A stretch of 64,000 nucleotides of DNA from an uncultured Planctomycetales bacterium (GCA_964603585.1 CAZRVK010000005.1:90027-154026), one strand, 5' to 3'; shown: positions 40,276-59,030, numbered from the stretch's first letter. Notes: generated by a model not told the origin, from the sequence alone. Numbers and translations are program-made.

Positions 40276-41799
40276 ATGCTGCCAAAAGGTTGGCTAAAGA
40301 AAAATTATTTATTAGTGGCCTTTATCCTGGCGCTGGTTTTCAGCGCATTCCTGCATTTTCGAGGCCTTGGCGGCGTAACCATCCTGGACGATGATGAATC
40401 CCGGGCCTTTGTCCTCCAAGGGAGCGGCCCGTTAATCTATTTTATCTGCCGTCCATTTTATCTTTTATCCGGGCGTGATCAAGCCAGCGCGTTCTATATC
40501 GCCGCACTCCTTGGTTTTATCAATATCATTTTGTTTTATCTTCTCTGCCGCAAGTTGTTCGATAAGGACCTTTCGAAACTGGCGGCCATAATCTATGCCT
40601 TGTATCCTGTGCGCATGAATTACGCGCGCACTTTATATCCGGCGGTATTCATAGAAAGCGCGTTCTTATTAGCCCTGCTTTTTCTATTTTCGGGCTTAAA
40701 CACGCGTAAATCATGGCAGGGATTTGTTTTTGGGGTATCTACTGTCGCTATTTTCTTCATGCATTATTCCGGTTACGCCCTGGTCATTGCTCTGATATTG
40801 GCAGTGATAGGATTAGGCATATGGCGTAAGTATTTTCGATTGAGCCGTGAGTTTATCCTGGGGCTGGTTGCTGGCTGTTTCATCCCTTTGGTGTTGATAA
40901 TCTGGTTTTGGCCGGGTAATGATTATTTACAGCAGGTTGTCCAATTTATGGGAAGGTATAAGAGTTATATGACGCATACCGGGACCCTTTTATATTTTAA
41001 CCGGGCGATCTTCCAGCAGATGTTTTCCTCCTGGCAGTATATCTTTATCAGCCTGGTTACTGCGGTTTCATGTTTATTTGTGTCAGTATATCCCCGGGCT
41101 AAAAGGAATAAAACCCTGGATTTGTTGCTGCTTATTTCATGTATTGCTTTGTTCATATTACAATTTGCGACTTTCTTAGGAAGGCATCCGCTTAACATAA
41201 GACACATAGTTTGGCTGGTTTCCCTCTACTCTGTGTGCATAGCACAGTGCATTTTCTTTTTATTATCCCGAAGGCGAGCCTTTGTGAAAATAACTGCAGG
41301 GGTGGTTCTTGTTTTATTCATTTGCGTTACGGCGCAGGAGAGTTATCAGATCACGGCTGAAACCTTTACTTTGACCCCGATCAAGGATTGGCTTAAGGGA
41401 AATAATATCCTCAAACGCCAGGTTATTACTTCATGGTGGATGCTTAACCGCGCTGGTGAGATAGACGGCGTATCACTTGTTCCAACCGCGTTCCAGGATA
41501 ACGGCGGCTCTTTTGAGTTTGGGATTCTCTGGCCGCTTGTATTTGAGGCATACCGCAAAGGCAGCTGTAAATATATCCTTACTTCGGGAATAAGCGGAAG
41601 GTTTTGCCTTGGAGAAGGGGATATAATGCTTAAATATGTTGATCCTGTTATGTCATGGCCGCATCCATATTCTAAATTCAAACGCCGGCCGTTTTATGAG
41701 CCAAAAGAGGTCAATATAAGTCTTTACCGCTTGGATGATGTTTTCTCGGAATGGAATATCAATACTATACAGTTTAACGCAAGAAGAGACCCGGGCTAA
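40276..41799 (+). CDS. GT-C fold membrane glycosyltransferase (PMT/ArnT, GT39/GT83-like), paralogue A
   Basis: Multi-TM N-domain with a first-loop acidic motif 'ILDDDESRAF' typical of GT-C enzymes. C-terminal soluble domain. Paralogous to 57486-59030. Confidence 0.6.
   Translation: MLPKGWLKKNYLLVAFILALVFSAFLHFRGLGGVTILDDDESRAFVLQGSGPLIYFICRPFYLLSGRDQASAFYIAALLGFINIILFYLLCRKLFDKDLSKLAAIIYALYPVRMNYARTLYPAVFIESAFLLALLFLFSGLNTRKSWQGFVFGVSTVAIFFMHYSGYALVIALILAVIGLGIWRKYFRLSREFILGLVAGCFIPLVLIIWFWPGNDYLQQVVQFMGRYKSYMTHTGTLLYFNRAIFQQMFSSWQYIFISLVTAVSCLFVSVYPRAKRNKTLDLLLLISCIALFILQFATFLGRHPLNIRHIVWLVSLYSVCIAQCIFFLLSRRRAFVKITAGVVLVLFICVTAQESYQITAETFTLTPIKDWLKGNNILKRQVITSWWMLNRAGEIDGVSLVPTAFQDNGGSFEFGILWPLVFEAYRKGSCKYILTSGISGRFCLGEGDIMLKYVDPVMSWPHPYSKFKRRPFYEPKEVNISLYRLDDVFSEWNINTIQFNARRDPG
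40474..40815. repeat. 342-bp tract 100% identical to 57684-58025 (copy 1), internal to GT-C paralogue A
   Basis: Base-by-base comparison: 342/342 identical. The flanking 5' 145 bp are about 92% identical and the 3' flank diverges to about 70%. Confidence 0.9.
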
Positions 41800-41807
41800 G
41801 CATATTA

Positions 41808-43048
41808 ATATGTATAAAGTAATAGAAAAGTGCAGGATTTGCGGAAACCCTGATTTGGTTGAGGTTGTTAATTTAGGCAAGATGATGTTAACGGGTGTTT
41901 TTCCCAGATCAAGATCAGAAGGCATCACTTTCGGCCCGGTTAGCCTGGTGAAGTGCTTTGGCTCTACGCAAGCCTGCGGCCTGCTCCAGTTAAAACAATC
42001 ATATGATCCTGCCCAGTTATACGGGACAAATTACGGGTATCGTTCGGGACTTAATCGCAGTATGGTGGAACATCTGCATAGAAGGGTTGACCATATTTTG
42101 GATATGGTCAAGATTAAAAAGGGTGACCTTGTCATCGATATCGGCAGTAATGACGGGACAATGCTTTCGGTTTATCCTCCAGGTGAGTTTGATCTTGTGG
42201 GGTTTGATCCTGTCGCTGTTAAGTTTAAAGGGTTTTATGCCCCACGGATCAACCTCGTTTTCGACTTCTTTTCTAAAGATATATTAGCCAGGGACTTTAA
42301 GGATAAAAAGGCAAAGATCATTACCTCGTTTTCCATGTTTTATGACTTGGAATGCCCGCTTTCTTTTATGCGAGGAATTTCTGAATCCTTAGATCAAGAA
42401 GGGATCTGGCTGTTTGAACAGAGTTATATGCCGCTGATGTTAAAGAAGATATCTTTTGATACGATCTGCCAGGAACATCTGGAATATTATGCCTTAAAAC
42501 AGGTAAAATGGATGGCGGATAAGGCCGGACTAAAGATCATTGGGGTTGAGTTCAATGATATTAACGGAGGAAGTTTTTCTGTAACCGCGGCCAAAAGCAC
42601 TTCTTCTTATCCCGAAGCCGCTGATCTCGCCTGGCTTGTGGAGCAGGAAAGGCTTGCAGGACTTGATCTTTTGGATACCTATCATGAGTTTTCCAAAGAT
42701 ATTGAGAAAGCCAAGAAGGATTTGTGTGATTTTATCAATAAGGTTAAAGCTGAAGGGAAAAAGATCTTTGGGCTTGGGGCGTCCACAAAGGGCAATGTTA
42801 TCCTGCAATATTGCGGGATCACGGATAAGGATATCCCTTTTATTGGCGAGGTCAATCCCGAGAAATTTGCGGCCTACACTCCTGGAACATTTATCCCGAT
42901 CATCCCGGAAGATGATTTATTAGCGATGTTCCCGGATTACCTTTTGGTTCTGCCGTGGCATTTTAAGGATTTTTTCCTTAAAAGCCCTAAATTCAAGAAC
43001 ACTAAACTGGTATTTCCTTTGCCTGAAATAGAGGTTGTAGAAGCGTAG
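41808..43048 (+). CDS. NDP-hexose C-methyltransferase-like protein (TylCIII/NovU family: N-terminal Zn-binding domain, SAM MTase, C-MTase C-domain)
   Basis: N-terminal 'CRICGNPDLVEVVNLG' zinc-ribbon domain (Methyltransf_13-like). Class I SAM fold 'VIDIGSNDGT'. C-terminal domain of about 150 aa. Confidence 0.65.
43007..43048. repeat. 42-bp 3' end of the C-methyltransferase gene, duplicated imperfectly (36/42) at 44502-44543
   Basis: 'ctggtatttcctttgcctgaaatagaggttgtagaagcgtag' versus 'ctggtgttttctttgcctgaaatcgaggttgtataagtatag'. Both end in TAG. The pair brackets the B12-rSAM gene exactly. Confidence 0.75.
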
Positions 43049-44500
43049 ATGGCGAACATACTGCTGATTTCAATAAACGATTTTAATGCGGAGGGATTGC
43101 GTATTCTGTCTGCAGTGCTGAAGAATAACCAGCATCAAGCTCATATCGGTTTTATTAAGAGCTACGATATAGGCAAGAAAGCCGAGGAATATGATTGGAC
43201 CGGGATAGATAATACAGGCCGGGAGTTCCGGTATGCCCGAGGCTCTGCGATCAGTGATACGGAAAAAACGATCCTTCTGTCTTTGATCCGGGATATCGGC
43301 CCAGGGATAATCGGTATTTCAGTGACCACGCCATTAAGAAAGACAGCCGCAGAAGTTTCTATGTTGATTAAAGGCAGCTTTAAGACACCGGTTATTTGGG
43401 GAGGAGTTGATCCGACGATCAATCCGCGTGAATGCCTGTCTTATTGTGATTTTGTTTGTATAGGAGAAGGCGAGAGGAGTATTGTTGATATCGCCTCATT
43501 ACTGGACCAAAATCGCGATATTCGTCAGGTAAATAATTTAGCGTACTTGGCCGGGAGCGAGTTGATTAAAAACCGTCTTTATCCTTTGATCCCTGATTTA
43601 GCCAGCCTTCCGTTTAAGGATATAGATAGTAACGGTAAGTTCCTGATCGAAGATAATTCATTGCTGAAGGATTTTAATATAGCAAGTTACACGAATAACC
43701 ATTCCTATCATATCATGAGCGCCAGGGGCTGTCCTTATCGATGCGCATATTGCTGTGAAGATTTCTATAAGGAATTATATGACAATCAGGTGTTCTTAAG
43801 AAGAAGGACTCCTGTTCACGTGGTGAACGAGTTGAAGAAAGCAAAAGAAATCCTGGGGTATAAACATGTTATATTCCAGGATGAGGTGTTCTCCTGTGAT
43901 TATGAATGGCTCCGGGAGTTCAGCGCTATGTATAAAAAACAGGTCAGCAGTGAATTCGCATGCAATATTTATCCAAATAAAGATATTGAAAAATATGTGA
44001 AGGTCCTGAAAGAGACGGGACTGATTTTTGCTTGTTTAGGGTTACAGTCAGGCAGCCAGGCAATAAACAGCAAGGTATTTAACCGGGTGTTTGACCGCCA
44101 GCTGTTCATAAAAACCGCGAATTTACTGCATTCTGCGGGGATAGGTTATTACGTTGATGTTATAACCTTCAATCCGTTTGAACAGGAAAAAGACCTGCAA
44201 TCGACTTTAAGTGTGCTCAAAGAACTGCCGAAACCGTTTAGTTTGTGCGTCAATAAATTATATGCCTGTAAAGGTACCCGGATACACGGATTGCTGCAGG
44301 GTTATAAGAGATCCCGGGGAGAAAAACCCCTCCGGGAAGGCGTTTTTATATATTATAGCTGCCTGTTCTGGCTGGCAGTGAATCACAGCAAGGCACTGGT
44401 TGGATTAATAGATAATATGCGGATATTTAAATATCTGGTGTCCTTACTGCATCGCTTCCGGAAAATAAGATCTAGGTGTCTGTCAATTCAAGGGCATTAA
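43049..44500 (+). CDS. B12-binding domain radical SAM protein (class B rSAM, putative C-methyltransferase)
   Basis: N-terminal cobalamin-binding Rossmann-like domain followed by the radical SAM 'CPYRCAYC' (CxxxCxxC) motif. The ATG abuts the preceding stop codon. Confidence 0.8.
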   Translation: MANILLISINDFNAEGLRILSAVLKNNQHQAHIGFIKSYDIGKKAEEYDWTGIDNTGREFRYARGSAISDTEKTILLSLIRDIGPGIIGISVTTPLRKTAAEVSMLIKGSFKTPVIWGGVDPTINPRECLSYCDFVCIGEGERSIVDIASLLDQNRDIRQVNNLAYLAGSELIKNRLYPLIPDLASLPFKDIDSNGKFLIEDNSLLKDFNIASYTNNHSYHIMSARGCPYRCAYCCEDFYKELYDNQVFLRRRTPVHVVNELKKAKEILGYKHVIFQDEVFSCDYEWLREFSAMYKKQVSSEFACNIYPNKDIEKYVKVLKETGLIFACLGLQSGSQAINSKVFNRVFDRQLFIKTANLLHSAGIGYYVDVITFNPFEQEKDLQSTLSVLKELPKPFSLCVNKLYACKGTRIHGLLQGYKRSRGEKPLREGVFIYYSCLFWLAVNHSKALVGLIDNMRIFKYLVSLLHRFRKIRSRCLSIQGH

Positions 44501-44501
44501 G

Positions 44502-44543
44502 CTGGTGTTTTCTTTGCCTGAAATCGAGGTTGTATAAGTATAG
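44502..44543. repeat. Relic copy of the C-methyltransferase 3' end (see 43007-43048)
   Basis: Direct sequence comparison. Lies in non-coding DNA after the rSAM stop. Confidence 0.75.
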
Positions 44544-44589
44544 GCGGATAAAATAATTCCGGGTTCGATCCATATATTTTTATATTAAT

Positions 44590-45657
44590 ATGATTTTCAA
44601 CTGGGGTTGTATTTTTCATTCATTGGTCCTGACAGTTTCTTTTGTGTTTTCTTTTATCCTGGCAAGAAGGAACAGGTCTTTTTGGGCCTTTCTTTTTAGC
44701 TTGGGTATTGGTTTATTGCTTTTTGAGCTGGCAATAGCATTAATGCTATATTTTCCTCTGTTTGCCAGGTTAGGGCCGCGGGGGTTCCTGCGGAATATAT
44801 ATATGAGTGGGTATCGAAATATAATCCAGCTGGAACCGGAGTTTGCCCGTTACGATCCATATCTCAAATATACCCTCAAACCGGGAGTTTTTCTGTTCCG
44901 CAACCCGGAATTTGCTAATGAGTTCAGGGTTAACAGCCTTGGGGTACGTGACGATGAATTCTCTTCAGAGTCTCCCGAAATAGTCGTAGTAGGGGATTCC
45001 TTGCCCATGGGCTGGGGAGTTGGCCAGGATCAAACATTCGCTCAAGTGCTCGAACAATCAAGCGGGTTAAAAGTCTTGAATGCCGCTGTTTCTTCTTACA
45101 GTACTGTAGAAGCTCTGCGCATAATCGATAGAATAGATATTTCAAAGGCAAAATACCTCATTATCGCTTATGGGCATGGCAAGTATTTCGAGAACCTTGG
45201 TTACTATAAGGCGCAGGACAAGTTCAAGGTCTTGAGCCGTAAAGAATACGAGCAGGCATCGGACAGTTATCACAAGCTGAAAGAATACTTGCCAATGAAA
45301 TATACAAGCCTTGCCTTCCTGGAATTAAGAAACAGATTGTTCCATATTTCGCCTCCTGTAATTTCTATACCTATGGAGACAGAGGCGAAAGTTTTTCTAA
45401 ACGCCGTTGTTAAGGCAAGCCATAAGGATTTAAGCGGGATTAAAATAATTGTTTTATGCGAGAAAGATTTTGTCGAACCATTAAAAAGAGCTGTTGCCGC
45501 ATTTAAAACGCCCGGGCATTTTATAAGGGGGGTGACAATTATTGGTCAGCCGGAAATAATAGGCGATCGTGCATATATCCTTGATGATCATCCGACAGCC
45601 GAGTGGCATAAAGCTGTTGCCGTTGAAATAGCCGGGATTTTGAGGGAAAATGGTTAG
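44590..45657 (+). CDS. Membrane-anchored SGNH/GDSL-fold hydrolase/acyltransferase-like protein (paralogue 1)
   Basis: Two N-terminal TM helices. Block I 'VVVGDSLPMGWG' and block V 'DDHPT'. Confidence 0.55.
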   Translation: MIFNWGCIFHSLVLTVSFVFSFILARRNRSFWAFLFSLGIGLLLFELAIALMLYFPLFARLGPRGFLRNIYMSGYRNIIQLEPEFARYDPYLKYTLKPGVFLFRNPEFANEFRVNSLGVRDDEFSSESPEIVVVGDSLPMGWGVGQDQTFAQVLEQSSGLKVLNAAVSSYSTVEALRIIDRIDISKAKYLIIAYGHGKYFENLGYYKAQDKFKVLSRKEYEQASDSYHKLKEYLPMKYTSLAFLELRNRLFHISPPVISIPMETEAKVFLNAVVKASHKDLSGIKIIVLCEKDFVEPLKRAVAAFKTPGHFIRGVTIIGQPEIIGDRAYILDDHPTAEWHKAVAVEIAGILRENG

Positions 45658-45676: not shown

Positions 45677-45711
45677 GCGGCAGGCAATTTCCCCTGCCGC
45701 TTTTACTTCTT
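45677..45711. terminator. Rho-independent terminator between convergent genes (8-bp GC stem GCGGCAGG/CCTGCCGC, 8-nt loop, T-tract)
   Basis: The hairpin is followed by 'TTTTACTTCTT' on the + strand. It lies directly downstream of the stops of both 44590-45657 (+) and 45703-46899 (-). Confidence 0.6.
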
Positions 45712-46899
45712 ATATTCGGCCAGAAAAATATCCGCCATTAAACGATGGCCTTTTTCATTAAAATGCATGTCGTCTTTAATGAAATATTCACTAACGGCCG
45801 GTTGCGCGCTGGTTTCTTTATCGCCGTCTACGAAGTAGGGGAAAGAGTTGATAAAATCCACCTTGCGCTTTTTACACCATTGGCTCCAGTGTTTGGCATG
45901 GATCGAGTCCAGATCATGATGGATGACTTGTAGCGGCCACGGGTAAACCACCACCGTAAGTTTGATCTTATTCTTTTTTAGCAGATCATACAGTTTATCC
46001 ATATAAAACTGCATTTCACGGATCCCTTGCTGGCCATATTCCCTATATAGTTTATCGTCAATTGTCCATGCGCTTATGTTATAAATGTCAACATCTCTTT
46101 GCAGGGTAGTTTCTTCCTTTGGGGCAAAGTGGCTGTATAAATTACTTATAATCGTATATGATAGTATCGAATTATTTTTGAAACTGGCTTTAAACCTTCT
46201 CCACAGGGTCATATAGTATCCTTCGGTTTTATCAATTGTGCATGCCGGCACGTATCCTTGCGCATCAGACCAGACAACGTTGCCGCTTTCGTCCAAAGAA
46301 TAGTTTGTTGCTTCATTAGCCGCGTCGCTTATATCCAGGAAAACGGCTAACCGGTCGAATTTTAAACCGGCATCTTCGATAAGATACTTTATCTTTCTCC
46401 AGTAGATGATCGGCGAATATGAGCTTACCCCGGCATTGAGTACTTCGATGTTTTCTTTGGATAATGCTGTATCGATCAGCCCGGCAAATGTATGTTCATA
46501 ATTTATGCCTAATCCTTCCGTAAAAGAGTCTCCGATAAGGACAAGGCGAATGTTCTCCGGGATCAAAGGGATCTGTCTTGTTGATTTGTCCCGGAATCCC
46601 AGGGAATTGGTATAATAATCTGACCTGTTGCATCCCCAAATGACCCCGAGAACGGTTTTATTTTTGGCCAGGTCATGATGGTATAGTTTCGATTGCTCCC
46701 GGTAAGCTTTTTCCAGCCTTTTATACTCGATATTGTGACGTTCTTCTTGTCTTGCCGCCCAGGAATACCCGTGCATGAACCTGTAGATATTGGCGCTTAA
46801 GTAATCAAGGGTAAGAGCGGTTATTATAAGAAAACACAGGATTGTTTTCTTGGGATGGCGTTCGAATAGGGCGGAATTACTATTTTTCTTGTTTTCCAT
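45703..46899 (-). CDS. Membrane-anchored SGNH/GDSL-fold protein (paralogue 2)
   Basis: N-terminal TM. 'LVLIGDSFTEGLG' block I and 'DDMHFN' block V. Confidence 0.55.
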   Translation of the reverse strand: MENKKNSNSALFERHPKKTILCFLIITALTLDYLSANIYRFMHGYSWAARQEERHNIEYKRLEKAYREQSKLYHHDLAKNKTVLGVIWGCNRSDYYTNSLGFRDKSTRQIPLIPENIRLVLIGDSFTEGLGINYEHTFAGLIDTALSKENIEVLNAGVSSYSPIIYWRKIKYLIEDAGLKFDRLAVFLDISDAANEATNYSLDESGNVVWSDAQGYVPACTIDKTEGYYMTLWRRFKASFKNNSILSYTIISNLYSHFAPKEETTLQRDVDIYNISAWTIDDKLYREYGQQGIREMQFYMDKLYDLLKKNKIKLTVVVYPWPLQVIHHDLDSIHAKHWSQWCKKRKVDFINSFPYFVDGDKETSAQPAVSEYFIKDDMHFNEKGHRLMADIFLAEYKK

Positions 46900-47144: not shown

Positions 47145-47927
47145 ATGTTTTCAAAAACCGGCGGTTTCTTAAAGTATTGGCAGTTGGTGTTTGTGTTTTC
47201 GGTTACATTCACTAAAATCCGGTATAAACAAACCTATCTGCGTTTTGCCTGGACGATGATCCAGCCTGTTTTTTCCCTGTTTGTGTTTACCTTTATTTTC
47301 GCCAAAATGGCTAAATTTCCTTCTGAAGGAGTGGCGTATCCGGCGCTTATTATAGCGGCGATCATCCCTTGGGCATTTTTTGCTTCTTCGGTCTCTTCCG
47401 GGGTAACTATTCTTTCCGATAACTTCAGCCTGATAACGCGGATAAACTTCCCTAAATCCACTTTGGTCCTCGGTACTATTCTTTCTAATCTTTATGATTT
47501 ACTGATATCTTTGGTCATAATGGTGGCAGTGTTTAAGGCCTATGATGTGCATCTGGGGGTTTACGCCTTCCTTTTTATCCCCATACTGATAATCCAGATA
47601 GTGTTTACCGCAGGAGTATGTTTAATAATTTCCGTAATTAACCTGTATTTAAAGGATATAAAGCATGCCATGGCGCTGATACTTCAAATATTAATGTTGG
47701 TCTCCCCGATAGGGTATTCTACCGGGATAATCCCGGAGGACTTAAGGGGGATTTATTTTCTTAACCCTATGGCGGGTTTAATCGAGAGTTACCGCTATGC
47801 ACTTTTGCATAACAGCCCTTTGGTTTGGGAGGATTTCTTTATGGCAGTGTTTATTTCCGGATTGACTTTATTGACCGGATATATAGTGTTTAAGAAAAAT
47901 GAGCCTATCCTTGCGGATATAGTTTGA
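47145..47927 (+). CDS. ABC-2 type polysaccharide export permease (Wzm/TagG-like)
   Basis: 6-TM ABC-2 permease pattern. 260 aa. Adjacent to the ATPase. Confidence 0.8.
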   Translation: MFSKTGGFLKYWQLVFVFSVTFTKIRYKQTYLRFAWTMIQPVFSLFVFTFIFAKMAKFPSEGVAYPALIIAAIIPWAFFASSVSSGVTILSDNFSLITRINFPKSTLVLGTILSNLYDLLISLVIMVAVFKAYDVHLGVYAFLFIPILIIQIVFTAGVCLIISVINLYLKDIKHAMALILQILMLVSPIGYSTGIIPEDLRGIYFLNPMAGLIESYRYALLHNSPLVWEDFFMAVFISGLTLLTGYIVFKKNEPILADIV

Positions 47928-47928: not shown

Positions 47929-48636
47929 ATGATAAATACCGTCATTGAGTTCAAGAATGCTTCAAAGAGGTATCATTTACGGGAAAAGCTTTTTTCATCC
48001 CGGGATTACTTATGGGCTTTACGGGATATTTCTTTTACGGTCGCCAAAGGCGAATCCGTAGGACTGATCGGAGCAAACGGCGCCGGAAAGACTACGGTCA
48101 TGAGGCTGGTATCTTCTATTACCAGGCCTACAGAGGGAGAGGTGTCGGTTGCCGGTTTAGTAGTGCCGTTAATATCGGTTGAGGGAGCGGTTGATCTTAC
48201 CTTAACCTGCCGGGAGAATATTTATCTTATTTGTGCTTTATTCGGCCTTAATATGGCAGATATAAGAAAAGAAACGCCAGAGATCATCGAATTCGCCGGC
48301 CTTCGTGGTTTTGTCGATACGCAGCTTAAAAGGCTTTCGCGGGGGATGATCACACGCCTTTCGTTTTCGATATCCGTCCATGTGCCTGCGGATATCATGC
48401 TTATCGATGAAGTGCTGACTTTGGGAGATAGGGAATTCCAGGATAAATGTTTTACCAAGATCAATGAATATAAAAGATCGGGGAAAACCATAATATTCGT
48501 TTCGCATTCCATGGATGATCTAAGGAGAATCTGCGATAGGATAATCTGGTTTGATAAAGGAAGAATATTAAATGATGGCCCTAAGGACACTATTATAGAT
48601 GAATATTCCGCGGCCAAAGAAGATCCTCTTAGTTAG
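47929..48636 (+). CDS. ABC transporter ATP-binding protein (Wzt/TagH-like, short form without a carbohydrate-binding C-domain)
   Basis: Walker A 'GANGAGKTT', signature 'LSRGM', Walker B 'IMLIDEV'. Confidence 0.85.
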   Translation: MINTVIEFKNASKRYHLREKLFSSRDYLWALRDISFTVAKGESVGLIGANGAGKTTVMRLVSSITRPTEGEVSVAGLVVPLISVEGAVDLTLTCRENIYLICALFGLNMADIRKETPEIIEFAGLRGFVDTQLKRLSRGMITRLSFSISVHVPADIMLIDEVLTLGDREFQDKCFTKINEYKRSGKTIIFVSHSMDDLRRICDRIIWFDKGRILNDGPKDTIIDEYSAAKEDPLS

Positions 48637-49819: not shown

Positions 49820-51231
49820 CAAGAAAGATCAATTATTTGATCCCGGCTCTTATTATCATCATTGTTTTAACATACTATAAAGTGGTTTCCTTTTATTTTA
49901 GATATGACACTTTTGTTTGGCTCGATAAAACGATATTTGACCATTTTAACTGGCAGTATTTCTTTGGTTACAACAAAGCCGCCGCATTCTATTTGACCCC
50001 CGTGGGCAATTTATTCTTTCTTTTAATGTACAAAGCATTCGGGTTATCACCTGTAGGCTATCACCTGGTTTTACTGCTCATACATATTACAGCGGCACTT
50101 TTGGTGTATCGTTTAACTTTCAAAATCGCCCAAAATAATGAGTGCGCATTCCTGGCGGCGCTTTTTTTCGGTATATATCCGGCTAATATCGAGGCCGTAG
50201 TTTATATTGCGGCATTTCACCATTCTCTTTGCGCAGTTTTTATCATGGTGTCGTTCTTAATGTTTGTGCGTTTTAAGGAATTGCTTCAGACCAGGGCCTA
50301 TGTCTTGAGCTTGGTATTCTACACCTTATCCCTGGTGGTCAAACCAACGGCAATAATCGTGCCTTTATTGTTTTTGGGGTACGAATGTATTTTATCCCGT
50401 GGTTTTTCGATAAACCGGGATATCAGAAAATATATACCGTTTGCGATTATCTCTTTTGCCTATCTGCTGGTCAGTTTTGCAATCGGCAGCTTTAATCAGG
50501 CGTATTTACCCATGCAGAACCAGTATTACTATATAGGAAGGCATATCCTGGAGAATATTTTCGGTTACTTTAAATACATGGTATTTCCTTTTGATAATGC
50601 CGTTAAAGCGGTCGCGGATATTTTTAGCCCGCAGGTTAGCCGGGTTTTTGGGGCGGCACAAGGAATTTTTATGGGGGCGGTATTTTCTCTGGCGGTTTAT
50701 CTTTCCTTAAGGGACAAAAGGATAAGGTTCTTGTTTTTTTGGGTAATCGTTTCACTTTTGCCGATACTGCCGTTTGAATTTTCTCCGCAGTCACGGTATG
50801 TCTATCTTTCTTCAATAGGATTATGTGCCTTGTTTGCGTTGGCCTTAAGATCAGAGAAGTTCATGCGAAAATGGGTGTCAAGGGCTGTAACCCTGGTTTT
50901 TATCCTGCTTTATTTCTTATCCTGCCGGGTCAATCTGTATCAGTATGAAAATGATTATATCTTATGGAAAAACTGGGCTATGGATATCGGTTCCATTCCT
51001 AAACCTTTTCCTGAAAAGGGAAAGCTGTATTTACTGGATTTTCCGAAACTTGCAGTTTCCCGTGATGATGAGATAAGTTCTTTAGCGCGGGTGGTTTTGA
51101 ACAGCCGGGATTTGGAAGTGGAAGCGGTTTATCCACAAGCGCAGGGAGGATATTCTTTACCGGAGACGGAGGTTTATTCATTAAAATACGAGAACAGGAG
51201 ATTGATTCCGTTTAAAAGAGCGCCAAGATGA
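49816..51231 (+). CDS. Polytopic membrane protein, GT-C-like (PMT_2/ArnT-like) glycosyltransferase candidate
   Basis: About 11 predicted TM helices. Its N-terminal region resembles the other two GT-C genes, including 'YHLVLLLIHITAALLVYRL'. The first loop contains D/E residues. Confidence 0.45.
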   Translation: MTRKINYLIPALIIIIVLTYYKVVSFYFRYDTFVWLDKTIFDHFNWQYFFGYNKAAAFYLTPVGNLFFLLMYKAFGLSPVGYHLVLLLIHITAALLVYRLTFKIAQNNECAFLAALFFGIYPANIEAVVYIAAFHHSLCAVFIMVSFLMFVRFKELLQTRAYVLSLVFYTLSLVVKPTAIIVPLLFLGYECILSRGFSINRDIRKYIPFAIISFAYLLVSFAIGSFNQAYLPMQNQYYYIGRHILENIFGYFKYMVFPFDNAVKAVADIFSPQVSRVFGAAQGIFMGAVFSLAVYLSLRDKRIRFLFFWVIVSLLPILPFEFSPQSRYVYLSSIGLCALFALALRSEKFMRKWVSRAVTLVFILLYFLSCRVNLYQYENDYILWKNWAMDIGSIPKPFPEKGKLYLLDFPKLAVSRDDEISSLARVVLNSRDLEVEAVYPQAQGGYSLPETEVYSLKYENRRLIPFKRAPR

Positions 51232-51989
51232 CTGATCCCGGACTAAGCGTAGTAATGATCACTTTTAACCGCCAGGAAAAGATTGCCCAGGCCCTTGAAA
51301 GCGTAAAGTGGGCCGAAGAGATCATTGTCCTGGATAGTGGGAGTACGGATAATACCGTGGATATATGCCGGAAATATACTAATAAGATATTCTTGCCTCC
51401 GCAGGAGTTTATTGATAGAAAATGCCTGGGCCTTAACCTTATTAAGAACTTCGGGTTTGGCCTGGCAACGCAGGAGTGGGTATTAAGCCTTGATTCAGAT
51501 GAAGTGGTGACGCCTGCTTTAGCCGAAGAGATCCGCAGGGTGGTAAATAGCGGTTCTGATTATGCCGGGTTTTTTATCCCCAGGAAGAATTACTATTGGA
51601 AGAAGTGTGTCCGGAGTCTATCCCCGGATTATCAGTTAAGATTGTTCAAAAAAGGCTTTGGTAATTTCGCTGGTGAGTATGTGCACGAGAAGCTTGAATT
51701 ATCCGGTAAGGCAGGTTACCTTAGTGAGCCGCTGATCCATTATAATTATGATTCGGTCGGTGATTTTTTGATGCGCTTGGAATATTATTTGCCTGATGAG
51801 GTTTCAAGGCTCAAGCGGTTTTGTGCGCCTAAAACAATATTAAAATTGTTCACTGTTCCCGCCGGAAGCTTTCATTACTACTTTTTCAAACAAAAAGCGT
51901 ATAAGGATGGGGCCGCAGGTGTCATTGTATCCGCGCTTCATGCGTATTATCATGGCCGGGTATATTTACGGTATTTTTTCTCTCAATGA
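51228..51989 (+). CDS. GT2 family glycosyltransferase
   Basis: 'LSVVMITFNRQEKI...LDSGSTDNT...SLDSDE' is the GT-A DxD architecture. Confidence 0.8.
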   Translation: MTDPGLSVVMITFNRQEKIAQALESVKWAEEIIVLDSGSTDNTVDICRKYTNKIFLPPQEFIDRKCLGLNLIKNFGFGLATQEWVLSLDSDEVVTPALAEEIRRVVNSGSDYAGFFIPRKNYYWKKCVRSLSPDYQLRLFKKGFGNFAGEYVHEKLELSGKAGYLSEPLIHYNYDSVGDFLMRLEYYLPDEVSRLKRFCAPKTILKLFTVPAGSFHYYFFKQKAYKDGAAGVIVSALHAYYHGRVYLRYFFSQ

Positions 51990-52000: not shown

Positions 52001-52933
52001 ATGGAATTACTTATAATCATCGTTAATTATCATAGCGAAAACCTGCTCTTTGACTGCCTGTCTTCCGTATATAAGAGCATCTGCGATCTTAAGTATAAGG
52101 TAGTTGTAGTTGATAATAATGAACAGGAATTTGCTTTCGAATGCCTAAGCAAAGTGTTCTCCGAAGTTCAATTCATTGTAAACAGAAAAAACATCGGGTT
52201 TGCCGCCGCTACTAATATCGCGCTTAAGTTATACCCGGCGCCGTTTACGCTTTTATTGAATCCGGATACAGTATTATATCCCGATGCGATCCAGGTTATG
52301 GTGGATTTCATGCGCAGCCGGGATGAAGCCGGGATAGTCGGGGCAAAGCTGGTGGATAAGGAAGGCGCCTCAAGTCCTAATCCTTCCTGTACCGGTATTC
52401 CGCAAAGCCCGGCGCAGGCACTGTTTGAATACACTTTTTTCGGTAAATTATTCCCCAGGCACAGGCTGGTAAAAGATTATTTTCTCACTGATTGGGGGCA
52501 CGATACTTTGCGTGAAGTAGCAATGGTGCAAGGGGCCTGTTTTATGATCAAAAAACCGGTTATCGACCAGATTGGGATCTTGGATGAAAGGTTCTTTTTG
52601 TATTGGGAGGAAGCGGATTGGTGTATGCGGGCAAAAAGCAAAGGCTGGCGGGTGTATTATCTACCCGGAGCGCGCTGTCTGCATCTCGGAGGGCAAAGCA
52701 CAAATAATAAAGAGCAGGATTATACCCAATTCTATAAAAGTATGTATAGATTCCATGCCAAACACTATGGATGGGGCATTTCCTTTATGTTAAGGTGTAT
52801 GATCATATTGTCCTTCTTCCTGGGATATCTTAAGCTTATACTGGTTTATTTGGCCGGCAACCTTTTTAAGAAAAATGAGAAAAGTCAAATCTCGGTAATG
52901 GGGCAAAAGATCATCGCCCAGTTCCGGTTTTGA
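52001..52933 (+). CDS. GT2 family glycosyltransferase (rhamnosyltransferase-like)
   Basis: 'LLIIIVNYHSENLL', 'VVDNNE' and 'LLNPDT' motifs. Confidence 0.8.
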   Translation: MELLIIIVNYHSENLLFDCLSSVYKSICDLKYKVVVVDNNEQEFAFECLSKVFSEVQFIVNRKNIGFAAATNIALKLYPAPFTLLLNPDTVLYPDAIQVMVDFMRSRDEAGIVGAKLVDKEGASSPNPSCTGIPQSPAQALFEYTFFGKLFPRHRLVKDYFLTDWGHDTLREVAMVQGACFMIKKPVIDQIGILDERFFLYWEEADWCMRAKSKGWRVYYLPGARCLHLGGQSTNNKEQDYTQFYKSMYRFHAKHYGWGISFMLRCMIILSFFLGYLKLILVYLAGNLFKKNEKSQISVMGQKIIAQFRF

Positions 52934-52942: not shown

Positions 52943-54082
52943 ATGAAAATAAAACTTCTTACTACATGGAATACCCGATGCGGGATCGCTGATTATTCAA
53001 AACGGTTGGTGAATGAGCTTTCTAAAAAGTGCAAGATCGAGGTTGTCCCTGTTTCGCCTTCTGCCAACCCGTTTTACTATTCGGCATTGGGTAAAAGGCT
53101 GAATGGGGCAGATATTGTGCATATACAGTATGAATATGGTTTGTTTATCCATAGCAATCCTTATATCGATCACTTTTCAATACTGATCAATCAGGTAAAA
53201 AGCCCTAAGGTATTTACCTTGCATTCCTTGCTTGTCCCGATTTCTCCTAAACCGCTTACCGGGGGCTTATTGAAGGATCTCGAGTTCGGATTAAGGAATA
53301 TGCTTTATGCTCCTTTTAATAACCAAATATGGCTTGAGCGTTTTTATGCTAAAGCGGATCATTTATTTCTGCATAACCGAAGAGATGCGTTGGTTTTAGA
53401 AGGCTTGGGGGTTAAGAAAGAAAAAATCTCTACGGACCTGCCGCCTGTCGTTCGCCGCACGGTTTGCGGTAGCGGTTCATCGGCCGCAGATAAATATGGG
53501 TTGAGGGATAAAATAATCCTGACAATCTTCGGGTTTATCAATCCTGCGAAAGGGTATGAAGTGGCGCTTGAGAGTATGCGGGGCCTTCCGGATAACGTTT
53601 GCCTGTTGATTGCCGGCGGTCTGCAGGGGGCCTCCGGGGCATCTTATTTGCGGCAGCTCCAGCGGTTGATCAGAATGAAGAACCTGGATAAAAGGGTAGT
53701 TATTACCGGGTACCTGTCAGAAGAAGATGCCGCCAGTATTATGGCTGCCTCTAACATTGTGCTGGCGCCTTTTACCAGCACCAATGGTTCAGGTTCGATG
53801 GGGCTGGGGATCTCTTATCATAAACCGGTCATTGCCTCTGACCTTTGTCCTAACAAAGAGGTGTATGAGGCTTGTGCTTGTATTGAGCTTTTCCACTCGG
53901 GTGATGCCAATGACCTGCTTGATAAAATAAAGAAACTTCTTTCTTCTAAAATGCGCAGGGATGAATTGTCGAAATCGGCTGAAAAATACTGTTTGAAATA
54001 TAATTATGGGCGATTGGCAGAAAAGACTATGGAGATTTATCATAAGCTTTTGTCTATGGATGGGTATAAAAACAATGGATAA
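52943..54082 (+). CDS. GT-B glycosyltransferase (GT4-like)
   Basis: C-terminal Rossmann domain with a 'GSMGLGISYHKPVIASD' nucleotide-sugar-binding-like segment. Confidence 0.7.
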   Translation: MKIKLLTTWNTRCGIADYSKRLVNELSKKCKIEVVPVSPSANPFYYSALGKRLNGADIVHIQYEYGLFIHSNPYIDHFSILINQVKSPKVFTLHSLLVPISPKPLTGGLLKDLEFGLRNMLYAPFNNQIWLERFYAKADHLFLHNRRDALVLEGLGVKKEKISTDLPPVVRRTVCGSGSSAADKYGLRDKIILTIFGFINPAKGYEVALESMRGLPDNVCLLIAGGLQGASGASYLRQLQRLIRMKNLDKRVVITGYLSEEDAASIMAASNIVLAPFTSTNGSGSMGLGISYHKPVIASDLCPNKEVYEACACIELFHSGDANDLLDKIKKLLSSKMRRDELSKSAEKYCLKYNYGRLAEKTMEIYHKLLSMDGYKNNG

Positions 54083-55013
54083 AAAAGAAGTGGTGGTGGT
54101 TATTCCGCATTTTAACGGGTTTCAGCATTTATCCGTCTGCCTGGATGGTTTAAAAAAGCAATCTTTTCCGGGTTTTGCAGTGATTATAGCCGATGATGGT
54201 TCAACCGATGGTTCGGCCGGTTATTTAAAAGAACATTATCCCTGGGTTAAGGTATTGTCCCTTGGCAGTAATAAAGGATTTGCCAAGGCGGTAAATTCCG
54301 GTATCGGCAAAGCCCTGGATGATAAAGAGGCGAAATACATCGTTTTGCTTAACAATGACACATATCCCGAATATGACTGGTTGGAAGAACTGGTTAAGGC
54401 AATGGAATCTGATCCTTCCGCCGGTTTTGCTGCGTCGAAAGTGCTTTTTATGGAAGACCGGAGTATTATTAATTCCGCAGGGGATAAACTTAGCAAAGCA
54501 GGATTTGCCTCTAACTGCGGCGCCTGGGATCAAGATGGGGCCAAGTTTAGCCAGCCGGGGTATGTTTTTGGCGCATCCGCCGCCGCTGCGATCTACCGCC
54601 GCAAGATGTTTGAGGATGTCGGCTTATTTGACGAAGATTTTTTTGCTTATTGCGAAGATGTAGATTTAAGCTTTCGCGCGCAGATCAAAGGGTATAAATG
54701 CCTTTATGTGCCGCGCGCCCGGGTTTATCATCATGGATTCCTTACCGGCAAGAATATCGCCGATTATTACAACGCCCGGAATACGCTCTTTGTGGTAATA
54801 AAGAATATGCCGTACAGGTTGATCTGCAAGTATCTTTTGTATTCATTTTATTCGCATTTTATTTATGTTTATGAAAAAAGGCGTATATTTTTTACCGTTC
54901 TTAGGGCTTACCTGGCGGCTTTTATTCAAGCCGGCAGGATGTTAAAGAAAAGAAAAGCCATTCAGCGCGGGATGAAGGTATCGGTAGAGTATATAGATTC
55001 TCTATTGGCGTGA
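54076..55013 (+). CDS. GT2 family glycosyltransferase
   Basis: 'VVVVIPHFNG', 'IIADDGSTDGS', 'LLNNDT' and 'YCEDVDLSFR' motifs. Confidence 0.8.
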
Positions 55014-55045: not shown

Positions 55046-56143
55046 ATGAACATCGGAATAGATGCCCGTTATATATCTGACAGGCGCACCGGACTGGGCC
55101 GGTATGCGTATGAGCTTTGCCGTAATCTCGATGCGCTTTTACCACAGGCGAAGTTCTTTCTTTACAGCAGCCGCCCGATCGAGATGCCGTTATGGTCTGG
55201 CCGCTGGATAAAACGGATTGATTCCGGTATTCCGCGCTTGTTTGCTCGCCAGCTTAATTTATGGCTGAAGACACGTTGTCATTGTCTCTGTAAAAATGAT
55301 CCTCTGGATATTTTTTGGGCCACAGCTACTCTTCTTCCGCATCTTCCCAGGAGCGTTAAAACCATATCCACCGTGCATGACCTGTGTTTTGCCGTCTCCC
55401 CGCAGAGTATGCAGATCAATTCCTTATTGATGCAGAAGTTGTTTTTTAAGAGCGATGTATTAAAAGCCGATCATCTGGTAGCGGTATCTTCAGGGACCGC
55501 CAAGCGCCTTTATGAATATTGCGGCAGGAATGTTTCTTTGATCATGCCTCCTTCAGCTTCGGAGCAATTTCGTGTTTATCCCCAGGAAGAAGTAGAAAAG
55601 GCACGGAGGCTTTATCATCTGGATTTTCCCTATATCCTTTCTGTGGCGACATGGGAGCCGCGGAAGAATATTGCTTTGTTAATGGAAACATTCATTGCAA
55701 TGAAGAATGAGGGGTTATTACCCGGATACAAATTAGTATTGATAGGCCAAAAGGGATGGAGATACCGCAGGATTCGCTCGATCTTGGATAAGCACTCCCA
55801 GGATATCGTTTGTTTAGGGTATGTAGAAGACAAATATCTTGCGCATATTTATCAAGGGGCAGGACTTTTTGTATTTCCTTCCATATACGAAGGATTTGGT
55901 CTGCCGGTTTTAGAGGCAAGGCGTGTAGGTACGGTGGTTGTGGCAAGCGACACCCCGGAACTAAGGGAAGCTGGCGGTAGTAGTACGCATTACGTATTTC
56001 CGGATAAGCAGGGGATACGCCAGGGGATCGTTCTTGCATTATCCGGCGATTTAAGCAAGAAGCCTTGTAGTGATTACGTGTATTCTTGGCAGGCCGGAGC
56101 AAAGGCACTCGCTCAACTTTTTTCTGAAACGGTTTCCAGGTAA
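55046..56143 (+). CDS. GT-B glycosyltransferase (GT4)
   Basis: 'FPSIYEGFGLPVLEA' motif. Confidence 0.8.
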   Translation: MNIGIDARYISDRRTGLGRYAYELCRNLDALLPQAKFFLYSSRPIEMPLWSGRWIKRIDSGIPRLFARQLNLWLKTRCHCLCKNDPLDIFWATATLLPHLPRSVKTISTVHDLCFAVSPQSMQINSLLMQKLFFKSDVLKADHLVAVSSGTAKRLYEYCGRNVSLIMPPSASEQFRVYPQEEVEKARRLYHLDFPYILSVATWEPRKNIALLMETFIAMKNEGLLPGYKLVLIGQKGWRYRRIRSILDKHSQDIVCLGYVEDKYLAHIYQGAGLFVFPSIYEGFGLPVLEARRVGTVVVASDTPELREAGGSSTHYVFPDKQGIRQGIVLALSGDLSKKPCSDYVYSWQAGAKALAQLFSETVSR

Positions 56144-57252
56144 AGTTGGTTTAAATCCCGGGTGATTATATCCCAAGAGTAATTTTTCAGCAAATCCCGG
56201 GGATATGAGGGGATCTGGTGTGCGGTTTCGATCGCTTCAGCGAATTGGTTTAATTCTGCGGTTTTTACCATGGGTATTAGATCGGGATATCCACGCATAC
56301 CGAATGGGGTTGAGACCACCTTTAAGTTAAAGGCCAGGTATTCCAGTATTTTAAATGATGTGCCTCCTCCAAAGGTAACAGGGTTTAGGCCAACCGGCGA
56401 AAGCGCGGCATATTCTGCAAAACCATCGATACGGTCGTCAATAAAAACATTCTTCATGCGGCAGGAATGAAACCTTTTGCCGCAACCTCCTTTGATTACA
56501 ATTGCCCATTCATCTTTTAGCTGTTGAGCCAGGTGATGGATGATCCAATCTGCTGCCGCGCGGTTATGCGGGACGTTACTTCCGCAAAAGACCGCGATTT
56601 TCTTGTAATTTTGCAGTCCGGGGCTGGTTTTTGCCAGTGTCTTTATGTATTCTCCTGGTTTTGGCTCCAGGTCTATTCCGTTTTGTGCGATATATATTTT
56701 TGAGCCGGATACTCCATATAGCTCGATGAACCTGGATTTGTCAGCCGCGGAACAGGCCAGGACTTTATCCGCCGCATGGACAAGCTTTTTTTCTAAACGG
56801 TATATTCTGCGGGAAACCAGGTCTTTTATTCCGGCCATCCGGCATTCGGAGCGCGAGTAATCGAACTCTACATTTTGTGCATTATATATTATAGTGCTTT
56901 CTTTAGGCAAACAATCCGTCAGGTCAGCGAAGCTGGCGTGTTCAAACTGGTATATATCCGAATGATCAAGATGCCTGTGGATAAGAAAACGGTATCCCGG
57001 ATGAAAGGAGGCGAGGAACTGGTATGGGAATGGCCGGTCAGTAAACAAAAATGAATGGATAAAAGGGTAATATATATTATAAAAACGCGGGTTATTCCCC
57101 GTGTTTTCTTTTTGCCTTATGTATCCGCATGGCGCAATGATATCGACGGCGAATCCTTGTGCCGCTAACCCGGAACAAATTTTGAATATCCGGATCTTTC
57201 CTCCGTAAGAAAGGGGTAAGACAGGGTAAGGCGAGATGCAGGTGATTTTCAT
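56113..57252 (-). CDS. GT-B glycosyltransferase (GT4-like)
   Basis: 379 aa, with a two-Rossmann GT-B layout. Convergent with, and overlapping by 31 bp, the preceding gene. Confidence 0.7.
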   Translation of the reverse strand: MKITCISPYPVLPLSYGGKIRIFKICSGLAAQGFAVDIIAPCGYIRQKENTGNNPRFYNIYYPFIHSFLFTDRPFPYQFLASFHPGYRFLIHRHLDHSDIYQFEHASFADLTDCLPKESTIIYNAQNVEFDYSRSECRMAGIKDLVSRRIYRLEKKLVHAADKVLACSAADKSRFIELYGVSGSKIYIAQNGIDLEPKPGEYIKTLAKTSPGLQNYKKIAVFCGSNVPHNRAAADWIIHHLAQQLKDEWAIVIKGGCGKRFHSCRMKNVFIDDRIDGFAEYAALSPVGLNPVTFGGGTSFKILEYLAFNLKVVSTPFGMRGYPDLIPMVKTAELNQFAEAIETAHQIPSYPRDLLKNYSWDIITRDLNQLYLETVSEKS

Positions 57253-57295
57253 ATTGCTTTGAATATATCATATAAATAATGATAATAAAAGCCAA

Positions 57296-57328
57296 AAACG
57301 ATTATGTGTGGGGGCGGTCTCGACCGCC
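57296..57328. promoter_or_regulatory. GC-rich palindrome / stem-loop in a divergent promoter region
   Basis: 'TGTGTGGGGGCGGTctcgACCGCCCCATACA': an 8-bp perfect stem with a tetraloop and imperfect flanking symmetry. No downstream T-tract on the + strand. Confidence 0.4.
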
Positions 57329-57372
57329 CCATACATGTATTGGCGGTATTTTCAAAACCAGGAACAATTGCC

Positions 57373-57400
57373 TTGATTTCTCGTCTTAAATAGGTATAAT
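57373..57400 (+). promoter_or_regulatory. Candidate promoter (TTGATT, 16-bp spacer, TATAAT) for GT-C paralogue B
   Basis: A -10 TATAAT at 57395-57400 lies 86 nt upstream of the ATG at 57486. Confidence 0.35.
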
Positions 57401-57485
57401 CAGACTCATAGTGGATATCCTCGTCATACTCCGGGCTTGAAAAATTAAAATCAATCAGTAAAACAACGATAAATAATTTATCCGT

Positions 57486-59030
57486 ATGTCCTTACTCCAT
57501 TGGTTAAATAAAAACCGGTTATCAATAATCCTGATATTTACGCTGGTTTTCAGCGCATTCCTGCATTTTCGGGATCTTGGCGGCGTAACCATCCTGGATG
57601 ATGATGAATCCCGTGCCTTTGTCCTTCAAGGGAGCGGGCCGTTACTCTATTTTATCTGCCGGCCATTCTATCTTTTATCGGGGCGTGATCAAGCCAGCGC
57701 GTTCTATATCGCCGCACTCCTTGGTTTTATCAATATCATTTTGTTTTATCTTCTCTGCCGCAAGTTGTTCGATAAGGACCTTTCGAAACTGGCGGCCATA
57801 ATCTATGCCTTGTATCCTGTGCGCATGAATTACGCGCGCACTTTATATCCGGCGGTATTCATAGAAAGCGCGTTCTTATTAGCCCTGCTTTTTCTATTTT
57901 CGGGCTTAAACACGCGTAAATCATGGCAGGGATTTGTTTTTGGGGTATCTACTGTCGCTATTTTCTTCATGCATTATTCCGGTTACGCCCTGGTCATTGC
58001 TCTGATATTGGCAGTGATAGGATTAAGCATCTTTACCCGGGATAAGATCAACAGGTTGTGTTGGTTCCAGTTTAACGTTCATTTTGTGCTGGGGGTGGTA
58101 TTAGGGTATTGCCTGTTCTGGTTCCTGTTATTCTGGCATTCTCCGGGGTATGATTATCTGGGACAGCTTTTTTGGTTTATGAAAAGAGAAGAAACGTACA
58201 TGGCACATATCCGTACCCCGGTATATTTTCACAGCGGGATATTCTACCAGATGTTCTCTTCTCTGCAATATATCCTGATAAGCTCGGTTACGGCGATCTC
58301 CTGTTTATACGTATTGGTTTATTCAATCATCATACGGAAGAAGCCGGTATTATTGTTCTTTTCCGTTTTTTGCATCGCCGCATCTCTTTTGGCGGTTGTC
58401 GCGTTTTTAGGACGGCATCCTTTAAAAATACGGCATTTAGTCTGGATGGTTTCTGTTTATGCCGTCTCTATTGCACAGTTAATTTCTTTTTTGTCTGCCC
58501 AAAGAAAGTGTATTGCAAATTTGGCAGCTAAAGTTATCCTTTGCGTATTTATCTCTGTTGCCGCTTACGAAAGTTACCAGATTACCGCCGAAACATTCAA
58601 TTTAACGCCTATTAAGAGCTGGCTTAAACAGAATAATATCCCCAAGAGCCAGATCATAACTTCATGGTGGATGCTTAACCGGGTGGATGACCCGGATGTA
58701 GCTTCATTTATCCCCACTGATTTTCGCAAAAACGCCGGTATCGGCGGCTCTTTCGGTTTTGTACTGATCTGGCCGTTTATTTTTGATGCATACCAGCAGG
58801 GCAGTTGTAAATACATCCTTACTTCAGGCATAAGCGGCAGGTGTTATATCGGTTATGACGATATAATGCTTAAACACGTAAAACCGGTTATGTCATGGCT
58901 GCATCCGTATTTTAAGTTCAAGCGCCGGCCTTTTTGCCGTCCGGTACCGCTTTATATCAATCTTTACCGGTTGGATGATGTTTTTTCGTCTTCTAATCTG
59001 GGGTCTCTAAAATCACGCGGTGAGGAGTGA
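57486..59030 (+). CDS. GT-C fold membrane glycosyltransferase (PMT/ArnT-like), paralogue B
   Basis: Same architecture as 40276-41799. Contains the 342-bp identical tract, and the C-terminal domain is conserved at protein level ('ESYQITAETF.LTPIK...GSCKYILTSGISGR'). Confidence 0.6.
   Translation: MSLLHWLNKNRLSIILIFTLVFSAFLHFRDLGGVTILDDDESRAFVLQGSGPLLYFICRPFYLLSGRDQASAFYIAALLGFINIILFYLLCRKLFDKDLSKLAAIIYALYPVRMNYARTLYPAVFIESAFLLALLFLFSGLNTRKSWQGFVFGVSTVAIFFMHYSGYALVIALILAVIGLSIFTRDKINRLCWFQFNVHFVLGVVLGYCLFWFLLFWHSPGYDYLGQLFWFMKREETYMAHIRTPVYFHSGIFYQMFSSLQYILISSVTAISCLYVLVYSIIIRKKPVLLFFSVFCIAASLLAVVAFLGRHPLKIRHLVWMVSVYAVSIAQLISFLSAQRKCIANLAAKVILCVFISVAAYESYQITAETFNLTPIKSWLKQNNIPKSQIITSWWMLNRVDDPDVASFIPTDFRKNAGIGGSFGFVLIWPFIFDAYQQGSCKYILTSGISGRCYIGYDDIMLKHVKPVMSWLHPYFKFKRRPFCRPVPLYINLYRLDDVFSSSNLGSLKSRGEE
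57684..58025. repeat. 342-bp tract 100% identical to 40474-40815 (copy 2)
   Basis: Direct comparison, 342/342. Confidence 0.9.

Follow-up and report, generated by a model that had tools for sequence, protein, structure and literature searches.

Two paralogous GT-C genes share an identical tract

We analyzed a 64,000-nucleotide (nt) stretch of DNA (hereafter, the window) from an uncultured Planctomycetales bacterium (GCA_964603585.1, CAZRVK010000005.1:90027-154026), in which two paralogous genes for membrane glycosyltransferases (GTs) of the GT-C fold, termed GT-C1 and GT-C2, bracket a block of glycan genes and share a perfectly identical tract that most probably arose by gene conversion. GT-C1 (40276..41799, + strand; 507 amino acids, aa) starts 5 nt past the trpF stop codon. 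GT-C2 (57486..59030, + strand; 514 aa) is 68% identical to GT-C1 at the aa level overall and has its own 233-nt upstream intergenic region. Both products match the GT39-like Pfam family PMT_2 above its gathering cut-off of 26.1 bits (46.2 bits for GT-C1 and 38.7 bits for GT-C2), and neither GT-C protein has a match in NCBIfam. A sequence search of Protein Data Bank chains with the family profile likewise returned no match, such that only a fold search yielded structural relatives. Specifically, the AlphaFold2 (AF2) model of GT-C1 (predicted local distance difference test score, pLDDT, 78.5; predicted template modeling score, pTM, 0.83) contains ~13 long helices followed by a C-terminal alpha/beta domain, in agreement with hydropathy, and its top Foldseek matches are the GT-C enzymes AglB, PglB, STT3, Pmt4, ArnT, ALG9, AftD and Emb (E-values of 8.5e-7 to 1e-3, at modest TM-scores of 0.34–0.54).

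The GT-C subfamily to which the two proteins belong is small (~65 clusters at E < 1e-30 among 1.84 billion representatives); its distant members were recovered in metagenome-assembled genomes (MAGs) of Omnitrophota, with one subfamily copy each in the DNA examined. In a family alignment of eight sequences, many residues between positions 40 and 167 are invariant. Among these are D40 and E41 of the acidic stretch D38-D39-D40-E41, which follows the first transmembrane helix (TM1) in a loop modeled at low pLDDT and which, by its sequence, qualifies as a putative catalytic motif.

The identical tract spans 345 bp, with positions 40471..40815 (copy 1, + strand) matching 57681..58025 (copy 2, + strand) at 345 of 345 bases and a constant offset of 17,210. 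An earlier model-generated reading of the sequence (the first-pass annotation) had described this repeat as 342 bp (40474-40815 and 57684-58025); those 342/342 bases do match, and the full run is slightly longer. Both copies lie in direct orientation and in a shared codon register inside the GT-C1 and GT-C2 open reading frames (ORFs). At the 3′ edge the identity ends abruptly, dropping to 43–55% with indels starting at once. An automated repeat search lists the pair only as a 300-nt family at 91% identity, as its reference copy begins in the less similar 5′ flank; no inverted repeats of at least 30 nt were found between 38 and 61 kb.

Divergence collapses within one segment of the genes

A codon alignment of GT-C1 and GT-C2 was used to split the genes into four segments, for which synonymous (dS) and nonsynonymous (dN) divergence were calculated. 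Codons 1–18 (40276-40329 in GT-C1) are 52% identical at the nt level and 39% at the aa level, with a dS of about 2. Codons 19–65 (40330..40470 in GT-C1 and 57540..57680 in GT-C2, both + strand) reach 91.5% nt and 94% aa identity at a dS of 0.31, in line with the “about 92%” given for one flank by the first-pass annotation. Codons 66–180 (40471-40815), which make up the tract, are 100% identical at both levels, with a dS of 0 over ~82 synonymous sites. Lastly, codons 181–507 (40816..41796, + strand), covering the variable membrane module and the C-terminal soluble domain, show 63.9% nt and 55% aa identity (dS 2.4, dN 0.32). The lower identity previously noted on this side is therefore real, although the value of about 70% attached to it was somewhat generous (60-nt windows range from 43 to 78%).

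Mapped onto the AF2 model, codons 19–65 run from the end of TM1 through the first external loop, which holds D38-D39-D40-E41, and codons 66–180 make up the next five helices (predicted TM2–TM6). GT-C enzymes combine a module whose structure is conserved with a variable one (PMC10154233), and we take codons 19–180, located in the N-terminal catalytic part of the modeled GT-C fold, to represent most of the conserved one. This coincidence between the region of high identity and the conserved catalytic module was missed in the first-pass annotation.

The 345-bp run is far beyond chance. Its length compares to a maximum of 52 nt across 10,000 shuffles of the alignment columns; when only codons with matching translations are considered, 112 consecutive ones are identical, versus a shuffle maximum of 42. 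With the analysis confined to the conserved module, all synonymously differing codons (8/8) fall within the first 47 codons, and the observed run was reached in 23 of 100,000 shuffles. Since selection at the protein level cannot remove synonymous differences, the tract is a product of recombination.

An orthologue separates gene history from tract history

A search of a library of 5.8 billion proteins recovered only seven relatives, one of which (P0001) is 91% identical to GT-C1. This protein is encoded on a 2,063-bp ENA contig (ERZ27247363, hereafter L001) that carries trpF, the GT-C gene and a radical S-adenosylmethionine (SAM) gene and that aligns without gaps to window positions 39959-41789 (92.0% nt identity over 1,831 bp). 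Across codons 181–507, L001 lies at a dS of 0.22 from GT-C1 and 2.6 from GT-C2, which makes it a clear orthologue of GT-C1. Within the tract, in contrast, GT-C1 and GT-C2 are the same and both lie at a dS of 0.33 from L001, which differs at 36 of the 345 bases (~22 of these differences being synonymous). The paralogues are thus closer to each other than to the orthologue inside the tract and follow orthology in codons 181–507, the discordance that characterizes gene conversion.

In codons 19–65, GT-C1, GT-C2 and L001 are roughly equidistant (dS values of 0.15, 0.26 and 0.31). The N-terminal module of L001 is also ~90% identical to GT-C2, an indication that some homogenization predates the recent event. 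The alignments accordingly resolve into what appear to be at least two layers of homogenization: an older one, approximately the age of the strain split, and a recent one confined to the lineage of the window. The ~92% flank is itself the older conversion layer, a point overlooked in the first-pass annotation. A first scan of GTDB representatives for sibling genomes gave no match, and a second one, based on a family alignment, yielded only distant single-copy relatives (33–39% identity) from two Omnitrophota MAGs, in loci without synteny; a scan of JGI metagenomes added two short, distant fragments only.

Both copies of the tract are present in sequencing reads. Logan assemblies of two runs (SRR15237810 and SRR15237811; k = 31), which are independent of the source assembly, provided contigs that are all 100% identical to the window. 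Contigs L008 and L012 begin at 40786, and L006 and L007 at 57996, i.e., 30 nt inside the 3′ end of each copy (tract end minus 29, the k-1 overlap). On the other side, L011 stops at 40360, and L009 and L010 at 57570, which is k-1 bases into the sole other shared 31-mer (40331-40361). These ends are the branch points demanded of a de Bruijn graph that contains both copies. Furthermore, GT-C1 is not a chimera, as L001 is colinear with it across both tract borders.

Ectopic gene conversion as the favored explanation

Taken together, the collapse of synonymous divergence and the discordance with the orthologue favor the view, to which we assign a probability of roughly 0.85, that GT-C1 and GT-C2 are anciently duplicated paralogues whose N-terminal module was homogenized by ectopic gene conversion; recent conversion between the two PMT/ArnT-like genes had been proposed in the first-pass annotation, and on this point our analysis agrees. 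The two genes are old duplicates that flank, in direct orientation, a 17.2-kb glycan block served by a Wzm/Wzt ATP-binding cassette (ABC) transporter. In the scenario we envision, non-reciprocal homologous recombination between the copies, presumably of the RecA type, would have homogenized codons 19–180 at least twice: an older event would account for the residual dS of ~0.3 in codons 19–65, and a very recent one would have copied codons 66–180, leaving 345 identical bases. No recA gene was identified among the scanned ORFs of the window. The 3′ end of the tract coincides with the exact limit of nt homology (an indel, followed by ~50% identity), as expected if heteroduplex formation stops once the sequences are no longer related. 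The C-terminal two-thirds, made up of the variable membrane module and the soluble domain and still 55% identical at the aa level, would have escaped conversion. Under this scenario the 345-bp repeat would be a by-product rather than a dedicated switch, one that could also yield rare unequal crossovers, in which 17,210 bp would be either lost irreversibly or duplicated in tandem.

Several considerations weigh against this reading or against its details. Only three sequences underlie the count of at least two events, the sole orthologue being one of GT-C1. The direction of transfer leans only weakly, towards GT-C2 as the donor and GT-C1 as the recipient: the proportion of differing synonymous sites (pS) between GT-C1 and L001 is 0.27 within the tract as compared to 0.19 in the C-terminal part, a gap estimated at ~1.4 standard errors. 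The contig-based check covers the borders of the tract but not its interior, in which an assembler or polisher might have erased a few true differences. Moreover, homogenization may be neutral rather than selected. With regard to function, GT-C1 and GT-C2 may share a lipid-linked donor and differ in acceptor; by analogy with other members of the family, the donor may be a polyprenyl-phosphate-linked sugar used on the outer side of the membrane.

Alternative explanations

A bolder extension of gene conversion would couple it to function and population biology. Recurrent conversion would be kept so that the donor-binding, catalytic halves stay identical (for a shared lipid-linked sugar or a heterodimer) and the acceptor halves diversify. 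The repeat would then have a second role as a contingency substrate: through it, part of the population of these ultra-small, possibly host-attached Omnitrophota could lose or amplify the 17.2-kb block and thereby evade recognition by, for instance, phages or a host. We regard this combination as unlikely.

Of about the same low standing, or slightly lower, is the proposal that the tract serves as a working RecA crossover substrate, with the 17.2-kb block deleted or amplified often enough to generate glycan variants in the manner of a contingency “switch”. The substrate itself is well formed: a perfect 345-bp direct repeat, in register, with copies 17,210 bp apart, whose deletion product would be in frame, and conversion is itself proof that pairing and recombination between the copies take place. 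Around GT-C1, gene content also differs between strains (L001 lacks the C-methyltransferase cassette), and a natural precedent exists in the Neisseria lgt locus, in which paralogous transferase genes lie in direct order and one strain is down to lgtA and lgtE (PMC2191774, PMC2192810). However, neither a hybrid gene, nor a deletion junction, nor an arrangement without the block was found, albeit with low power for rare variants. The protein clusters at 90% identity hold one member (GT-C2) and two members (GT-C1), and no hybrid was among the seven relatives in the 5.8 billion proteins. All four repeat flanks, together with genes internal to the block, occur in both SRR15237810 and SRR15237811, so that only the full-length arrangement is seen, and in L001 the GT-C gene still ends in the 3′ part proper to GT-C1, with the radical SAM gene coming next. 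The deletion foreseen in the first-pass annotation is therefore absent from the record, in data that could not have revealed a rare one, since the tract exceeds the k-mer size of 31 and a rare junction would go undetected in these assemblies.

The geometry of the repeats also argues against a switch. Recombination between direct repeats yields deletion or tandem duplication, not inversion, and deletion is one-way. The inversion of the block suggested earlier is hence contradicted by the direct orientation of the repeats and the lack of inverted ones, and an on/off or variant switch is at odds with a deletion that cannot be reversed; no recombinase domain is present in the scanned ORFs. The expectation of an in-frame hybrid GT-C gene after crossover holds as far as orientation, register and frame are concerned, and fails in that no new enzyme would arise: the predicted product differs from GT-C2 at 14 residues, all within residues 2–54, and so is effectively GT-C2. 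It would sit behind trpF, stripped of the transporter and of all GT2 and GT4 genes, i.e., as GT-C2 without a pathway. We therefore treat the 345-bp repeat as a by-product of conversion, which probably gives rise to rare deletions that end up lost or neutral.

Less likely still is that the perfect identity is an artefact of assembly or polishing, in which copies that are truly ~92–98% identical were collapsed by bubble-popping or by polishing with multi-mapped reads. Both genes come from a 180,142-bp contig assembled from a metagenome, assemblers do err at repeats exceeding the k-mer size, and the tract interior lies outside the contig-based check. Against this, the source assembly preserved 12 copy-specific differences within the adjoining 141 bp, which makes collapse seem unlikely, and the Logan contigs of both runs break at the expected points on either side of each copy and match the window fully. 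These breaks, along with the colinearity of L001, also speak against the chimeric or collapsed repeat that the first-pass annotation had raised as grounds for rejecting its own proposal. In any case, a handful of hidden differences would leave the conclusion of recent conversion unchanged.

Lastly, identity without recombination, maintained instead by very strong purifying selection that acts on the catalytic module or on an overlapping nt-level element, is effectively refuted by the synonymous-site data: although the tract does encode the most conserved part of the family (with its many invariant residues at positions 40–167), it shows 0 differences at ~82 synonymous sites versus a pS of 0.25 in the equally conserved codons 19–65 (calculated P about 3e-11), the rest of the gene is saturated at such sites, the ~22 synonymous differences in L001 demonstrate that tract sites are free to change, and no Rfam family or tRNA lies within the tract.

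Comparison with known systems

Gene conversion between bacterial paralogues is a process already known, and we propose no new mechanism; the present case stands out in that a single structural module is affected, in a rare GT-C subfamily from an uncultured phylum. One parallel is provided by tufA and tufB of Salmonella and E. coli, in which conversion is bounded by the limits of homology (PMC5485169). As here, a chromosomal pair of paralogues is kept alike non-reciprocally, through homology-limited tracts of hundreds of bases. Unlike the present pair, the tuf genes are homogenized over their full length and share one function, whereas in the GT-C genes only the N-terminal third is affected and the rest is saturated; the GT-C copies also lie 17 kb apart in a single glycan locus, and experimental rates are available for the tuf genes only. 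More broadly, prokaryotic paralogues can undergo long-lasting or recurrent concerted evolution (PMC6053082). The two layers observed here conform to that pattern, in which paralogues within a genome are repeatedly closer to each other than to orthologues across genomes, with the difference that those cases concern whole genes, mostly of core pathways, and ours a single module of the fold in a rare GT-C subfamily, documented in two strains only.

The lgt locus of Neisseria, with its paralogues lgtA/lgtD and lgtB/lgtE, resembles the present one in harboring paralogous GT genes of the same orientation within one surface-glycan locus, and the natural strain 15253 has lgtA and lgtE only (PMC2191774, PMC2192810). 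Such a shortened locus is the outcome that the first-pass annotation had proposed; neither a shortened nor a hybrid locus was observed here. The systems also differ in that the lgt enzymes are soluble rather than GT-C membrane proteins, the lgt locus measures ~5 kb, and its rapid variation stems mainly from poly-G tracts.

A structural analogy is offered by the mycobacterial embC-embA-embB genes, which encode paralogous GT-C arabinosyltransferases within one cell-envelope locus. Both systems comprise co-encoded GT-C paralogues with a conserved catalytic membrane module and differing acceptor-recognizing parts. The Emb proteins are larger (~1,100 aa), their genes are adjacent in tandem, and sequence identity between the Emb fold matches and the present GT-C proteins is ~10–13%. 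To our knowledge, no identical conversion tract is known between emb genes.

The locus thus offers a clean case, with solid statistical support, in which gene conversion in an uncultured phylum is restricted to a single module, and suggests, without proving, a shared donor and a differing acceptor for the two enzymes. It also carries a warning for annotators and phylogeneticists, in that the N-terminal third of these GT-C genes departs from the history of the genes as a whole, and it marks a spot at which assemblies from short reads will break or be mis-joined. Given its clear cassette variation from strain to strain, long-read population data from this locus could be used to determine how often crossover occurs relative to conversion in natural populations.

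Neighboring genes and genomic context

The genes between GT-C1 and GT-C2 form an ABC-transporter-dependent (Wzm/Wzt) glycan assembly locus, as judged from an ABC-2 permease and an ATPase encoded among seven GT2 and GT4 genes. GT-C1 is followed on the + strand by a C-methyltransferase gene (41738..43048; Methyltransf_13/23/14), part of a cassette missing from L001, a gene for a B12-binding radical SAM enzyme (rSAM1; 43049..44500) and a gene for a 355-aa, weakly SGNH/GDSL-like protein (44590..45657; NCBIfam GDSL_LA_2490, E 9e-11, below cut-off). The latter is 34% identical over 90 aa to the product of the next gene, an SGNH/GDSL hydrolase on the - strand (45703..46899). A Wzm/KpsM-like ABC-2 permease (47145-47927, +; ABC2_membrane) and a Wzt/TagH-like ATPase (47929-48636, +; ABC_tran) come next, each with an NCBIfam match below the equivalog cut-off. 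These precede a GT4 (48599-49819), a 471-aa unclassified polytopic membrane protein (49816-51231), two GT2 enzymes (51228-51989 and 52001-52933), a GT4 (52943-54082), a further GT2 (54006-55013) and two more GT4 enzymes (55046-56143 and, on the - strand, 56113-57252). Beyond GT-C2 lie an asparagine-synthase-like amidotransferase (59058-60785), a second B12 radical SAM enzyme (rSAM2; 60786-62282) and another SGNH hydrolase on the - strand (62295-63533).

This inventory largely bears out the earlier gene list with respect to the C-methyltransferase, the B12 radical SAM enzyme and Wzm/Wzt; the two SGNH proteins listed resolve into one clear and one weak representative, and seven of the eight GTs are supported by Pfam (GT2 or GT4), the eighth being the unclassified membrane protein. 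The statement that no transposase or site-specific recombinase is present also stands, as no integrase, invertase or transposase domain occurs in the scanned ORFs between 39.6 and 63.5 kb. The 471-aa membrane protein has ~10 hydrophobic segments and matches no family in Pfam or NCBIfam; candidate identities are a polymerase, a ligase or a GT-C that has diverged strongly. Compared with the GT-C family profile as a possible third GT-C, it reached an hhalign probability of 7%. Segmental duplication of a whole “GT-C plus tailoring” module was rejected, given that in an all-against-all BLASTP comparison only the GT-C genes are close paralogues, with rSAM1 and rSAM2 22% identical and no match for the SGNH genes.

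Gene content next to GT-C1 varies between strains. In L001 the GT-C1 stop codon leads straight into the B12 radical SAM gene, whereas the window carries 1,237 extra bases (41790-43026; L001 position 1831) that hold the C-methyltransferase gene, a strain-specific cassette indel. In addition, an 85-nt stretch at 42990-43074 recurs at 44485-44569 with 75% identity, the second copy being located at the end of the radical SAM gene. It takes in the final ~60 nt of the C-methyltransferase gene together with a ribosome-binding junction, “GAGGTTGTAKAAG..TAG”, and the same junction motif occurs in L001 directly after GT-C1. This 85-nt repeat may represent a recombination scar or a common junction that mediates cassette exchange.

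The island is joined to the trpGDCF operon at 40270-40276 (L001 312-318), with the 5-nt spacing between the trpF stop and the GT-C1 start kept in L001, which suggests that a surface-glycan enzyme is co-transcribed with tryptophan biosynthesis genes. At the opposite end, GT-C2 and the GT4 gene on the minus strand diverge from a 233-nt intergenic region that contains a GC-rich perfect hairpin, GGGGCGGTCTCGACCGCCCC, at 57311-57330. Rfam and tRNA scans of the whole window returned nothing, and a promoter/terminator scan gave 44 promoter-like sites versus 43 expected. On another contig (L014 10001-12956; GCA_041890195.1), the gene for a distant GT-C subfamily member (P0005, 40% identity) is directly followed on its 3′ side by a radical SAM gene, in housekeeping surroundings with no other glycan genes. 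GT-C and radical SAM genes may therefore be loosely associated, a link that is weak because the radical SAM protein of this contig has no detectable similarity to rSAM1 or rSAM2.

Upstream of GT-C1, the window encodes housekeeping functions, including polA, glgA, coaE, rho, prfA and prmC, the genes trpG, trpD, trpC and trpF, and, at 19228-26675, a Wood-Ljungdahl set (formate-tetrahydrofolate ligase, FolD, MTHFR and the acetyl-CoA synthase/CO dehydrogenase beta subunit). The best named matches of peptide chain release factor 1 are all from Candidatus Omnitrophota, at no more than 78% identity, and in clusters built at 90% identity the genome's housekeeping proteins each stand alone; the organism is therefore an uncultured Omnitrophota bacterium of a sparsely sampled lineage. 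The glycan island has a slightly lower GC content (0.41–0.45) than the DNA outside it (0.44–0.48).

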